DNA from: an uncultured delta proteobacterium
GTDB taxonomy: Bacteria; Desulfobacterota; RBG-13-43-22
Length of the DNA: 64,000 bases
Direction: 5' to 3'
Assembly: GCA_963843145.1 (NCBI GenBank)
Contig: CAWJJC010000020.1
Span: 224,001-288,000 of the forward strand
Numbering within the stretch: the stretch's first letter is position 1; each line of letters starts with the position of its first letter. A program made the translations under genes and the position numbers. Of this stretch, positions 52,640 through 58,258 are shown piece after piece. The notes beneath the pieces are model-generated. The model did no database searches. It was not told where the DNA came from and saw only the letters and a program-made list of their open reading frames with translations.

Positions 52640-53097
52640 TATGAAAATAGAACCCGGCATGCCACTCGGGCATTCATCAATCGAATTAATAATGAACAGT
52701 TGATGATTATTAATTATTAATGTCAAAAACTTAGGCTTATGTCTGCCCCTTTATTTGCTCGAGCAGGCATGCGTTTAGTAAAACAGTCCTGCATAGTGTC
52801 ATTGGGCGGCGATTTGCTCGAAAGGATGTAGCTTTTATGCCGTCATTCTCCTCAATGACCCCATGGGCGGGAATTTTAATTTTCGTGCCGGCATGGGCCT
52901 TAACGTCATTGAACCTGCCGAACTCCCCACATCGAACGATTAATGGGAAGACTGAAAAATCAGAAATAGGTATTACAGACAATTATGAGATCCGTAATAA
53001 TATGGTTCTTCGTCTTTTCCATTCGAGATTCGATGTTGGGCGTTCGATGTTCGATGTTCATTTTCTTTCTTCGGGGTCCCCGCCCCGGCCACAGGGG

Positions 53098-53580
53098 TTA
53101 TTCTCCGCAAACAGGCGCCTGTTCATGGAAGACCCAGATGCGGGTATTCCAGCCGGGGATATGCTGCGCCCGGCCGTACTTTTGTCGATATTCGGGATTT
53201 TCGGTTAACCCCAGGGCGTGGTTGGAGTACTTCTTGTTATAGTGCCCCAGGTTTTCCAGGGCCAAATAATACCCGCCCCGGCCGTTGGGATGCACCTCGT
53301 AATCCACATTCCAAGCTTCTTCCCATTGAATATACTTCGGACTCAGCCCCGGCGGGGCATGGTTGTCGATCCCGTCCGGCGGGTAGCAGCCGCCATGGTC
53401 CCGGGCATAGGCTTCCAGTGCCTGGCTGATCCGGGCCGCCTGGGAGGCGAATTCCTTAAAAGGGGCCTCCCGGCTTCTGATGGTCTGGACAATGGCCAAG
53501 ACGGTGATAACCACCATCAAGACCCCGATAATCCACCATTCCCCGGAAGACATCCCCAGATACGTTTTTCGAGTTTCCAT
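53098..53580 (-). CDS. Pilin/pseudopilin-like protein
   Basis: Degenerate prepilin site G|MSSGE plus hydrophobic helix; ALEAYARDHGGCYP resembles GspG. Confidence 0.55.
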   Translation of the reverse strand: METRKTYLGMSSGEWWIIGVLMVVITVLAIVQTIRSREAPFKEFASQAARISQALEAYARDHGGCYPPDGIDNHAPPGLSPKYIQWEEAWNVDYEVHPNGRGGYYLALENLGHYNKKYSNHALGLTENPEYRQKYGRAQHIPGWNTRIWVFHEQAPVCGE

Positions 53581-53717
53581 GGCCCGATGATACTAAACGC
53601 GGATGATTTAAAAAGTCAAGCGGGCTCTTGGCCTCCTTGACCGCGACGTCCTTCCCCGTCAAGAGATTTATTGACACTTTGAATGATTTAAGTAGGATAG
53701 GGTATATCAGTATGGAA

Positions 53718-53826
53718 ATAAACGAAGCCCTGCGACCTAACGCCTTGTCACTCGCCTCCAGGGGCGATTGGGGCTGACTATCTCGAAGGAGACCGAGCCC
53801 TGACCCCACCGTTGAGAGGCCGGCAA
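53718..53826 (+). ncRNA. Candidate structured non-coding RNA of unknown class
   Basis: GC-rich multi-hairpin stretch downstream of TTGACA-16-TAGGAT (53671-53698), with no convincing ORF. Confidence 0.35.
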
Positions 53827-53853
53827 TCAAAAAAGTCTCCCGCTCCGCGAATT

Positions 53854-53973
53854 AGACCCCGCCGGAGGCGTGAGTTCTTTTGAAAAATCGGCGTCTCCGC
53901 GATTTTTAAAAAATAAATTCGTCTTTCTCTGCGACCTCGGCGAACTCGAGCGAAGCGGGCGAGAGATAAAAAG
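53854..53973 (-). repeat. Dispersed repeat family B, copy 2
   Basis: Inverted copy of 19003-19123. Confidence 0.88.
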
Positions 53974-54023
53974 CACACCTGTCCTGGTGAAGTACTAACA
54001 GACACCTCGAAAAAGGAGAACCC

Positions 54024-54428
54024 ATGAAACAGAAATCCATCGCGTTGGGCTGGAGCACTTTTTTTTCAACCTTCCTGACGATCCTGCTGGTTACCACTGC
54101 GAATGCGCAAGGAACCGCTCCCGTCGATCAAGTCGCAGTGGCCTTAAGGGCCTATGGTCCAGGCGGCCCGGCACCGGCTATGCGGGAATCGGCCTGGGCC
54201 GGTGATCCCAGCTACGATGCCTGGCTCATCTGGACCATCTGGCAAAAAGAGAATCCCGTTGCCGCCGATCTGATCCCTACTGAGCCGGAGCTTACCATCT
54301 ATCGCTCCTGCGGCGTTGCGATTACCAATCGTTCGAAGCGAAAGGCCCTGGCCAAGGAATTTGCCGATTTCCTGCAATCCGCCGAGGGACAGGAAATTTT
54401 CCTGAAATGGGGCTGGATGAAACCCTAG
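54024..54428 (+). pseudogene. AcfC-like / ModA-superfamily substrate-binding protein with in-frame internal deletion
   Basis: The N-terminal YGPGGPAPAM motif is fused directly to C-terminal DAWLIWTIW..IYR..FLQSAEGQEIFLKWGW; only 134 aa. Confidence 0.7.
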
Positions 54429-54510
54429 ACGGCGCCGCTTCGTTCATTTTTAAGAAAGGGTTCATTGCCATTTTCGTTGGATATATGATTTTGATAAAAG
54501 ATGCGCGGCC

Positions 54511-55721: not shown

Positions 55722-56017
55722 TCGGCATAACCATAATTTTTAGGCCATTAGAGGTAGACGGAAGACAGTGACGTGGAGTGAACAGAATAGAGAGCAGAGG
55801 GGAGGGGCAGACCAAACAAAAGAATCGAAATCTATTGGGTCCTGAAACTGCCCTTATTACCCATAAAAAGAAGATTATAAGGGGAGCGGGGATTCCGCGG
55901 ACCAACCGACAATTCCTTCTTGATCATATCCATGGTTGGTCTGGACTGACTCTATTTCTCCAATAGGAACCCAAAACATTATGAAGTCGTTTACCCTAAA
56001 GAAAGGAGGACGTTCCC

Positions 56018-56723
56018 ATGACCGAAACCAGCAGAATGGATAAGACTTTTAACATTATTATGAAAACTTTGGTGGAGACGGGGCAGGCGCCCCACTACAC
56101 GGAGATTGCCGCCGCCTTAGGAGTCTCAACCGAAGAGGGGCGAAAGGCTGTTCAGGAGCTCTTTTCGCTGCCCATGTTCCCCGGATGGCTTTATCCGAAC
56201 ACCGATACCATCACTTCCTTTCCGCCGTTCAATAATCTTCCCACCCAGTACCGCATCACCGTTGACGGCCGGCAGAAATGGTTCGGGCAGTGAGGGTTTG
56301 AATCGCTGGCGGTCTGCTGGCTTTTTCCTGGGAAAACGGTCCGGATCGAGGCGCCCTGTCTGGATTGCGGCTTGCCGATTCGAGTGGAAATGAAGGACGG
56401 GGTTTTGCTCAGCACGGAACCCGAAGGACTGGTCGCCTATACCCCCGTCCCTCTTCGAGAATGGTTCAAAGACATTCCCTATTCCTGAAGCACCATGAAT
56501 CTCTTCCGGTCGGAAGAGGATGTTCGCAACTGGAGCGGTTTCAAGCCCGGCACCGAGGAAGGGATCGTCCCGCTGCCGGATATGGCCCAGGCCTTTTCCG
56601 GGAATTTTTTCCGGAGACGCCTGGACCCGGATTATGTTTCCCACCTGCGCGCAATATATGAAGGAAATGGTCGGTGCCTTACACGGCCGGGGTTCCTTCT
56701 GGCAGATTCCTCCGCGCGCCTAG
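56018..56723 (+). CDS. MerB (alkylmercury lyase)-like protein with two selenocysteines (UGA 56291-93, 56486-88); probable +1 indel at ~56650
   Basis: AGGAGG SD and N-terminal HTH. One frame continues through both TGAs: WFGQ-U-GFESL, APCLDCG, IPYS-U-STMNLFRSEE. These align with MerB YAWC96ALD99, C117 and FC159CHVHFF. Both TGAs have SECIS-like hairpins. Confidence 0.85.
56305..56321 (+). promoter_or_regulatory. Putative SECIS 1
   Basis: GCUGGC-GGUCU-GCUGGC (6 bp including G-U pairs), 11 nt after UGA. Confidence 0.7.
56500..56519 (+). promoter_or_regulatory. Putative SECIS 2
   Basis: UCUCUUCC-GGUC-GGAAGAGG, 11 nt after UGA. Confidence 0.78.
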
Positions 56724-56762
56724 CAGAGGTCGAAACCAACAATCAACCGGAGAGAAAACCAA

Positions 56763-57386
56763 ATGAAGCCGTCTCAAAAGGAATTGCCCAAGTGGGCCGA
56801 TCAAATCCCGGAGGCTTTGTGGATCGACCTGGGTAATCGTTCTCCTCAACAAGCCGCGGAGGCGGTTGGCGCGATCTGGGATGGGACCACCTTCCAAGTC
56901 CCCTTAGTCGGTCGCGATTATACCCTCGATCCCGCTCAGCGACGAATTACAGAGACCCGCCTTCCCGATCAGCCGGTCAGCTTTCAGGCCGGGGTGGTGT
57001 TGCTCACCACCTTGGCCATTTCCAAAGGGGTGCCGCCGAGCGGCCGGATGGTTGTGCCGCAGGAACTTCCCGGCGGCCGGGCGTTCTTTACCGGTGCCCA
57101 TGCGGTAGCTACCGGCCCGTTGGCCAAAGGCTTCGAAGAGGATCCCGCCCGATTGATCGATCGGGCAATGGGATTTGGCGGTGAACGGATCGAGGGGGCC
57201 GACGTTGCGATTCGGGTACCGGGGTTGCCCTATGTCCCTTTATACGTTTTACTGTGGCGGGGCGATCCGGAGTGTCCGGTAAGGGCGGTCATCGGAATTG
57301 ATGCCCGGGCGCATTTCCACCTGGATTTGGGAAGCGTCTTAGCCTTGACCAACTTACTGGCCTATCGTCTTTGTAAAGCTGGCTGA
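56763..57386 (+). CDS. DUF3786 domain protein
   Basis: ELPGGRAFFTGAH, LPYVPLYVLLWRGD.E.P..A.I..D pattern. Confidence 0.8.
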   Translation: MKPSQKELPKWADQIPEALWIDLGNRSPQQAAEAVGAIWDGTTFQVPLVGRDYTLDPAQRRITETRLPDQPVSFQAGVVLLTTLAISKGVPPSGRMVVPQELPGGRAFFTGAHAVATGPLAKGFEEDPARLIDRAMGFGGERIEGADVAIRVPGLPYVPLYVLLWRGDPECPVRAVIGIDARAHFHLDLGSVLALTNLLAYRLCKAG

Positions 57387-57672: not shown

Positions 57673-57909
57673 ATGAATACCATAACCGTCCGATTGCCGG
57701 ATCATCTCTTTAAGGAATTGGATGACCAATCAAAAAAATTAAAAATTTCAAGGGCTTTTTATGTCCGGAAAGCTTTGGAACACCTGAATCAGGAAATTAA
57801 CGCCCAAAACCGTCGAGAACGATTAAAAAAAGTAAGTCTAAAAGTACGAAGTGAAAGCATGAAAGTGAACGCCGAATTCAGCGAGGTAGAGGAGGCCCCG
57901 GATGCTTAG
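57673..57909 (+). CDS. Ribbon-helix-helix antitoxin
   Basis: TITVRLPD.L..ELD...SR..YVRKAL; overlaps the toxin start; TTGACA-17-TACTAT promoter at 57615-57643. Confidence 0.85.
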   Translation: MNTITVRLPDHLFKELDDQSKKLKISRAFYVRKALEHLNQEINAQNRRERLKKVSLKVRSESMKVNAEFSEVEEAPDA

Positions 57910-58258
57910 ACGCGGAGAAATCTGGTGGGCCAATCTGAATCCGGGAAGCGGCACTGAACCGGGCAAGATCAGACCCGTCCTGATACTCCAAAACGAAGCG
58001 TTGTTGGAAGCCCGGCATCCCTCAACGATCATCATTCCTTTGACCACGAATCTGGTGGAAGATGCCGAGCCCTTAAGGATCAGAATACCCGCCCAGGGAT
58101 TGTTGGAGAAAGACTCGGACCTGCTGATCGACCAGGCCCGAGCCATAGACAATCAGCGATTAATTAAAGGCCCGCTGCTTCACCTCGATGCCGATTCCCT
58201 CCAAAACGTAGAAAAAGCCGTCATTGAAGTATTGGGAATATCCTCAGCGCCTATTTGA
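57902..58258 (+). CDS. mazF: PemK/MazF family toxin
   Basis: RGEIWWANL.P..G.EPGKIRPVLILQ, IPLTT, DQARAID..RL. Confidence 0.9.
   Translation: MLRRGEIWWANLNPGSGTEPGKIRPVLILQNEALLEARHPSTIIIPLTTNLVEDAEPLRIRIPAQGLLEKDSDLLIDQARAIDNQRLIKGPLLHLDADSLQNVEKAVIEVLGISSAPI

Follow-up and report, generated by a model that had tools for sequence, protein, structure and literature searches.

The question raised by positions 56018–56723 of the 64,000-nucleotide stretch of contig CAWJJC010000020.1 analysed here (the window) is whether the pieces called there in the genome of an uncultured delta proteobacterium are one gene for a MerB-like enzyme, in which both metal-binding cysteine positions are encoded by UGA and read as selenocysteine (Sec). 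Inspection of the frame that begins at ATG 56018, on the + strand like all features of the window described below, showed that it is broken solely by the TGA of codon 92 (56291–56293) and the TGA of codon 157 (56486–56488), as had been claimed in the initial annotation of the DNA, and both codons are kept across more than 200 loci. Open reading frame (ORF) calling with genetic code table 11 splits the locus into 56018–56293 and later pieces. A Shine-Dalgarno sequence, AAGGAGG (56004–56010), can be read directly 8 nucleotides upstream of the ATG. As assembled, the frame extends to 56836 and corresponds to 272 residues; the proteins of relatives have 230–235 residues, and the gene encodes about 234 (56018–56723) when an extra base near 56652 is discounted. 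The answer reached below is that the product is very probably a two-Sec enzyme of the MerB fold, its UGA codons being recoded through stem-loops of their own, and that it would carry out a MerB-type protonolysis of organometals.

The read-through product matches the Pfam MerB profile (PF03243) over residues 73–191 with 73.9 bits, against a gathering cut-off of 27, and 57.7 bits are obtained when the genome is searched in six frames. An AlphaFold2 model of an intact relative (L003) reached a predicted local distance difference test score of 83.3 and a predicted template modelling score of 0.80. The 11 best matches of this model in the PDB are all MerB or MerB2 (E values of 1e-7 to 3e-5, template modelling scores of 0.50–0.66), and the next matches, beyond these two proteins, have E values above 0.3. 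Profile and predicted structure are both in line with the MerB relationship first proposed, and the fold of the family, as modelled, is that of MerB.

The HMMER alignment to the solved MerB chains placed U92 on Cys96, E95 on the proton donor Asp99, C114 on Cys117 and U157 on Cys159, which agrees with the assignment made in the initial annotation. The two Sec residues are separated by 65 residues, compared with 63 between Cys96 and Cys159 in MerB. In the 89 unique family sequences with Sec at both sites (a count without L109, L046 and the window copy, whose tail is out of frame), TGA is found at both columns in 89/89, and Glu95 (56300–56302) and the two cysteines of the C114-L-D-C117 motif (56357–56368), of which C117 is additional to the MerB set, are likewise invariant (89/89), with codons that vary freely (Cys as TGT or TGC). 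The defining MerB residues Cys96, Asp99 and Cys159 are absent as such, and their columns hold the chemically analogous Sec, Glu and Sec.

The distribution of the two TGAs was followed by six-frame searches with the read-through protein. Within 41 related genomes, which carry up to four paralogues each, all near-full-length matches (25/25, 42–92% identity) have exactly two TGAs. A search of one genome per GTDB species gave 471 relatives. Both columns carry TGA in 78 of the best 80 loci; the two remaining ones are L109, with TGC at both, and L046, a broken fragment. The named records in this search are nearly all metagenome-assembled genomes of Desulfobacterota, with the exception of one Dehalococcoidia bin, and the Desulfobacterota among them belong to Desulfobacterales, Syntrophales, Desulfatiglandales, Desulfomonilaceae, Syntrophobacteraceae and Desulfarculales. 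In a sample of the phylum (401 evenly drawn genomes), at least one two-TGA copy was present in 38 genomes and 45 of the 46 family-level matches had both TGAs, the odd one (G335) being decayed, with an early TAA and Val at site 2; more distant MerB-like matches in this sample (29–35% identity) are free of stops. A metagenome scan gave 532 relatives, the best 80 of which comprise 78 TGA/TGA loci, one TGT/TGA locus (L197) and one that could not be resolved. Protein conservation persists past each TGA, with invariant columns up to residue 227 and conservation to about residue 230, so that it does not stop at the first TGA. With TGAs, hairpins and flanking protein conserved in well over 200 independent loci, the dual-TGA pattern is far beyond chance. 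In the genome of one relative (L046, L018), family copies are interrupted or flanked by poly-G and poly-T runs, translated as GGGGGG.../FFFFF, which look like assembly artefacts.

Cysteine is found at these columns in rare members. L109, the sole Cys/Cys locus whose DNA was seen, carries TGC at both Sec columns and has lost both hairpins. L197, with TGT at site 1 and TGA at site 2, retains the site 1 hairpin, a pattern that fits a recent change of TGA to TGT. Among the 120 best database matches, 64 are proteins of 155 residues with C at site 1; the DNA behind them could be checked for P0067 only, which is L197 and has TGT, and L142, 97% identical to another of these proteins (P0057), carries TGA.

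Each UGA is followed by a hairpin of the kind expected of a bacterial selenocysteine insertion sequence (SECIS). At site 1 (element at 56300–56326) the stem GCUGGC (56305–56310) begins 11 nucleotides after the UGA and pairs with 56316–56321 around a GGUCU loop, with a flanking lower stem of 3 base pairs. At site 2 (56501–56518) the hairpin consists of CUCUUCC (56501–56507), a GGUC loop (56508–56511) and GGAAGAG (56512–56518). A spacer of exactly 11 nucleotides had been claimed for both sites; this holds strictly at site 1, but the spacer at site 2 is 12 nucleotides, and becomes 11 solely if a wobble pair specific to the window copy (U56500–G56519) is counted. The fdhF SECIS of E. coli is a hairpin within the coding sequence after the UGA, with GGUC(U) in its apical loop. 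The elements described here resemble it in lying within the coding sequence 11–12 nucleotides after the UGA, in the GGUC(U) loop and in serving one UGA each, and differ from it in that two of them stand in one short ORF, 195 nucleotides apart, with stems of 6–7 base pairs and no Rfam match. The Rfam scan, made over 55900–56900, returned no SECIS family and only a chance NiCo match (E of 5.6). GGUC is not the rule across the whole genome, since the SECIS of its selD gene has another loop, CGGGC.

Both hairpins, proposed initially from the single sequence, are kept across relatives and bear the mark of selection at the RNA level. In 77 sequences the pairs are formed in 98.5% of the cells at site 1 and in 97.5% at site 2, compared with 28–62% and 42–59%, respectively, when the 3' partner is slid; four relatives have UGCUUCC...GGAAGC(A/G) at site 2. 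The normalised codon entropy of conserved degenerate codons is 0.56 in the site 1 zone and 0.34 in the site 2 zone, compared with 0.87 over the remainder of the gene (p = 4.5e-6 in a Mann-Whitney test of the SECIS zones versus the rest). Synonymous variation is near zero at codons 96–99 of site 1, and at site 2 the codons of Phe163 (TTC, 89/89), Arg164 (CGG, 89/89) and Ser165 (TCG, 88/88) are frozen. This synonymous-site constraint is a stronger argument for the hairpins than covariation. Single-sequence folds of the 60 nucleotides after each UGA are no more stable than shuffled sequences (z = +1.18 and -1.24), and it is conservation rather than folding energy that speaks for the hairpins. As a separate observation, UUUUUCC directly follows the SECIS-1 hairpin (56305–56331), where a simple scan scores a site resembling an intrinsic terminator; the U-run, read as Leu-Phe-Pro codons, is conserved.

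The source genome (97.9% complete, 6.9% contamination) was examined for the genes of Sec synthesis and insertion, at the suggestion of the initial annotation. All were found: tRNA-Sec is present, and selA (609.4 bits), selB (368.8 bits) and selD (395.3 bits) score over the curated cut-offs. The selD gene carries a TGA of its own.

The 3' end of the window copy requires one correction. The initial annotation had removed one base near 56650 to restore the tail, and the relatives L002, L003 and L004 are indeed without one C that the window copy carries in a GCGCGC run at about 56652 (the exact place within the run is ambiguous), which shifts the frame of the last ~21 codons. L003, 92% identical, ends ...HLREYMKEMVGALHGRGSFWQIPPRA, as had been predicted, and the window protein is identical there once the extra C is removed. 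All environmental contigs that cross the site, mostly from relatives of the source genome, are without the extra C (depths of 29.1/29.1 in X1, 2.61/2.61 in X4 and 12.05/12.1 in X15), and it is probably an assembly error. No variant was seen at either TGA in these contigs (depths at the two TGAs of 64 and 68 in X1, 2.4 and 2.7 in X4, 61 and 21 in X15). No public sequencing run contained more than 0.32 of the sequence words, and nothing from the raw-read run X21 aligned. X15 is a metatranscriptome and has related contigs, DNA carry-over being possible.

A comparison with known proteins sets this family apart from its nearest described counterpart, SaoL, a Sec-containing MerB-like protein that the initial annotation had rightly named and that proves to be a different, single-Sec branch. 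As described by Haft and Gwadz (bioRxiv 10.1101/2022.07.06.499078), SaoL carries just one Sec, which lies in a CU motif and occupies the Cys159 column; it retains Cys at the column of Cys96 and belongs to a nine-gene SAO operon. Both are selenoproteins of the MerB fold with Sec at the Cys159 column, both occur in anaerobes including Deltaproteobacteria, and both are routinely truncated in databases. SaoL, however, has Cys, Asp and its one Sec at the columns of Cys96, Asp99 and Cys159, where the present family has Sec, Glu and Sec; the motif here is Y-[AS]-U-S (Y-S-U-S in the window) instead of CU, and the SAO neighbourhood that SaoL marks is missing. The SaoL model NF040728 (cut-off of 140) gave 36.8 bits for the window protein and 41.6 for an intact relative. 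Membership in SaoL or the SAO system was rejected on the low score, the lack of a CU motif, the second Sec at codon 92 and the lack of an SAO locus.

The comparison with MerB itself (EC 4.99.1.2; PDB 3F0O, 3F0P, 1S6L) and MerB2 (PDB 5C17) shows the same Pfam family, the same fold, three analogous catalytic columns and the alignment of C114 with Cys117 of MerB. The differences are an identity of about 20%, a Sec/Glu/Sec active site in place of Cys/Asp/Cys, Ser158 in place of Cys160, the extra cysteine of the CxxC motif and the lack of a mer operon. The NCBIfam MerB equivalogs were not reached by the window protein (34.9 bits versus 193 for NF009710, 28.9 versus 200 for NF033555) or by the intact relative (41.2 and 31.8 bits). 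These scores, the altered catalytic columns and the lack of a MerA over its cut-off led to the rejection of a canonical MerB.

No model in NCBIfam release 20.0 claims the window protein. SaoL is the sole MerB-like entry in the available parts of two selenoproteome reviews (PMC9312934; PMC13188914, May 2026, 119 families and subfamilies), and its row in the 2026 table reads 'CU, 1', where 1 is taken as the number of Sec residues. Terms for MerB, mercury or lyase are absent from the main text of deep-Sep, BSepDB and a 2016 ISME paper, and a literature search on MerB, alkylmercury lyase or organomercurial lyase together with selenocysteine, with supplements outside its scope, gave no two-Sec MerB. 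On sequence grounds, the MerB family has here a genuine, widespread and unannotated branch with two Sec residues.

A second, diverged MerB-like gene with two in-frame TGAs was observed in the same genome (G000:C28:400112-400858, + strand; loci L141 and L222). Its arrangement is U-A-V-D ... F-U-K-K-S-V-F-F-R-S-E-E, with Asp retained at +3, and its second UGA is followed by the same hairpin, here UUCUUCC-GGUC-GGAAGAA. A gene for a MarR-type regulator lies upstream, and two TGAs are kept in eight of the relatives searched (51–77% identity). This second two-Sec MerB-like clade might mean that such genomes have a small set of enzymes, each for other organometals.

The placement of Sec92, Sec157 and Glu95 at the positions of Cys96, Cys159 and Asp99 makes a MerB-type protonolysis of a carbon–metal bond the most likely chemistry. 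In this scenario SelB and tRNA-Sec would recode each of the two in-frame UGA codons of the mRNA to Sec, guided by its own stem-loop 11–12 nucleotides downstream, to give a cytoplasmic MerB-fold enzyme of about 234 residues. In an organometal substrate, the metal would then be bound by the selenolates of Sec92 and Sec157 and the leaving carbon would be protonated by Glu95; release of the tightly bound metal may be aided by the invariant C114xxC117 pair. As far as function can be read from sequence, the protein would be an organometal lyase with a Sec/Glu/Sec site, and methylmercury may be what it cleaves.

Since the host lives in sediment and is a putative mercury methylator, methylmercury is the foremost candidate for the substrate; other organometals or organometalloids may serve too. 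The assignment of the host follows from an HgcA-like ORF of 358 residues elsewhere in the genome (G000:C12:64263-65339, + strand; locus L139), the gene for which the genome was to be inspected; it was found by the NVWCAAGK motif, which we take to be that of the HgcA cap helix, and has a C-terminal membrane domain. Across the phylum sample, a strong HgcA match is present in 20 of 38 carriers of the two-Sec gene and in 101 of 363 non-carriers (odds ratio of 2.9, Fisher p = 0.0026, uncorrected for shared ancestry). This is association, not coupling.

Several points weigh against the two-Sec organometal lyase as set out here. Binding of Hg(II) by a bis-selenolate site is expected to be extremely tight, which makes a route of unloading necessary for turnover, and the acid column has changed from Asp99 to Glu. 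The window copy is, as assembled, frameshifted over its last ~21 codons. The support for the hairpins comes from conservation and not from covariation: no pair is double-changed at site 1, and at site 2 four cells change from C-G to U-A, in the outer pair. Covariation is scarce because the hairpin sequence is nearly frozen. No conserved neighbour was found, the largest neighbour cluster being present in 8 of 80 loci. The best MerA match in the genome scores 325.7 bits versus a cut-off of 454, and no mer genes were seen among the window ORFs scanned over 48.7–61.9 kb, a genome-wide search not having been made for merR, merT or merP; the locus is, as stated from the outset, not a classical mer operon. 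Finally, the link with HgcA is only partial (20/38 carriers).

The strongest alternative accepts a real two-Sec MerB fold and departs from the organomercurial lyase: the enzyme could act on arsenic, tin, lead, antimony, tellurium or selenium bound to carbon, or a Sec92–Sec157 diselenide and the CxxC could form a redox or metal-sequestering site. The lack of mer context and the varying gene neighbourhoods are in its favour, as are the 18 of 38 carrier genomes in which HgcA was not detected and the invariant extra CxxC (89/89 sequences), and the same uncertainty about substrate is argued for the Sec-bearing SaoL by Haft and Gwadz. Opposed to it are the specificity of the fold match to MerB and the retention of all MerB catalytic columns as chemical equivalents, including the acid at +3. 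This alternative is a serious one, to be given somewhat less than an even chance.

In a second alternative, the TGAs are true stops and the locus is a decayed gene, or three small ORFs, without read-through. The splitting by table 11, the frameshift of the window copy and a few decayed copies (L129 with TAA and Val at site 2, the L046 fragment, and the frameshifted L171 and L173) are what such a reading would draw on. It becomes very improbable given that more than 200 loci, some with no more than 42% identity, share the positions of both TGAs and keep the frame open and the protein conserved past them, that rare homologues carry Cys codons at these columns, and that the hairpins are under synonymous constraint in a genome with the complete Sec machinery.

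A code in which TGA is sense genome-wide (code 4 or 25, with Trp or Gly at both sites) finds an echo in the W at both Sec columns of about 49 of the 120 best database matches (many of them among P0001–P0051), but it can be dismissed as next to impossible, since TGA is the ordinary stop of the DUF3786 gene (57384–57386, Pfam profile complete), which excludes a TGA-sense code, since the matches to selA, selB and HgcA are without internal TGA and in-frame TGA throughout the conserved genes of the genome was not seen, and since TGA stands at just two columns, alternating with Cys rather than Trp and with a SECIS-like hairpin after each. The entries with W at both sites are full-length only because the gene caller used the TGA = Trp code; evidently some pipelines picked table 4 for short contigs. 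Such calls would mislead alignments and the deduction of active sites.

The surroundings of the two-Sec gene offer no partner for it. The DUF3786 gene downstream (56763–57386; PF12654, 115 bits) was rejected as an operon partner, as it adjoins the gene in just 2 of 80 loci and the linkage does not extend beyond the closest relatives. The top neighbour clusters (PAS kinase, molybdopterin oxidoreductase, acyl-CoA dehydrogenase, TPR, ferredoxin, ComEC, adenosine kinase, AMP-ligase, methyltransferase and DUF169) are unrelated. Upstream of the gene lies an ABC transporter of the Lol/MacB type, which is not an SAO system. Past the LolD-like ATPase gene, 52640–54430 holds short ORFs without family matches; one ORF there, of 134 residues, matches only the C-terminal third of SBP_bac_11 (profile positions 150–226 of 227) and may be a gene remnant. 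Next after the DUF3786 gene, 57673–58258 (+ strand) comprises a small ORF (57673–57909) and a MazF/PemK toxin gene (PF02452, 89.6 bits) whose start it overlaps; the two probably form a toxin-antitoxin pair of type II.

The net amount of methylmercury in a sediment, wetland or rice paddy depends on the balance of methylation and demethylation, and to our knowledge no genetic basis has been established for mer-independent demethylation by anaerobes. A MerB-fold enzyme in which both metal ligands are Sec is a concrete and testable candidate for this process. The family is present in about a tenth of the sampled Desulfobacterota genomes (38/401) and is enriched among carriers of hgcA. Routine annotation breaks the gene into three with table 11 or calls Trp with table 4, so metagenome surveys of merB will have missed it. 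It is conceivable, though unlikely on present grounds, that this widespread bis-Sec organometal lyase of anaerobic Desulfobacterota, many of them with hgcA, is a mer-independent methylmercury demethylase of anoxic sediments; if so, its two selenolates would capture methylmercury at trace, sulfide-buffered levels where a Cys-based MerB cannot compete. Few bacterial proteins are known to have two Sec residues with a separate SECIS within the ORF for each; the family would be a clear addition to them, and it would link selenium availability to the cycling of mercury or other organometals.
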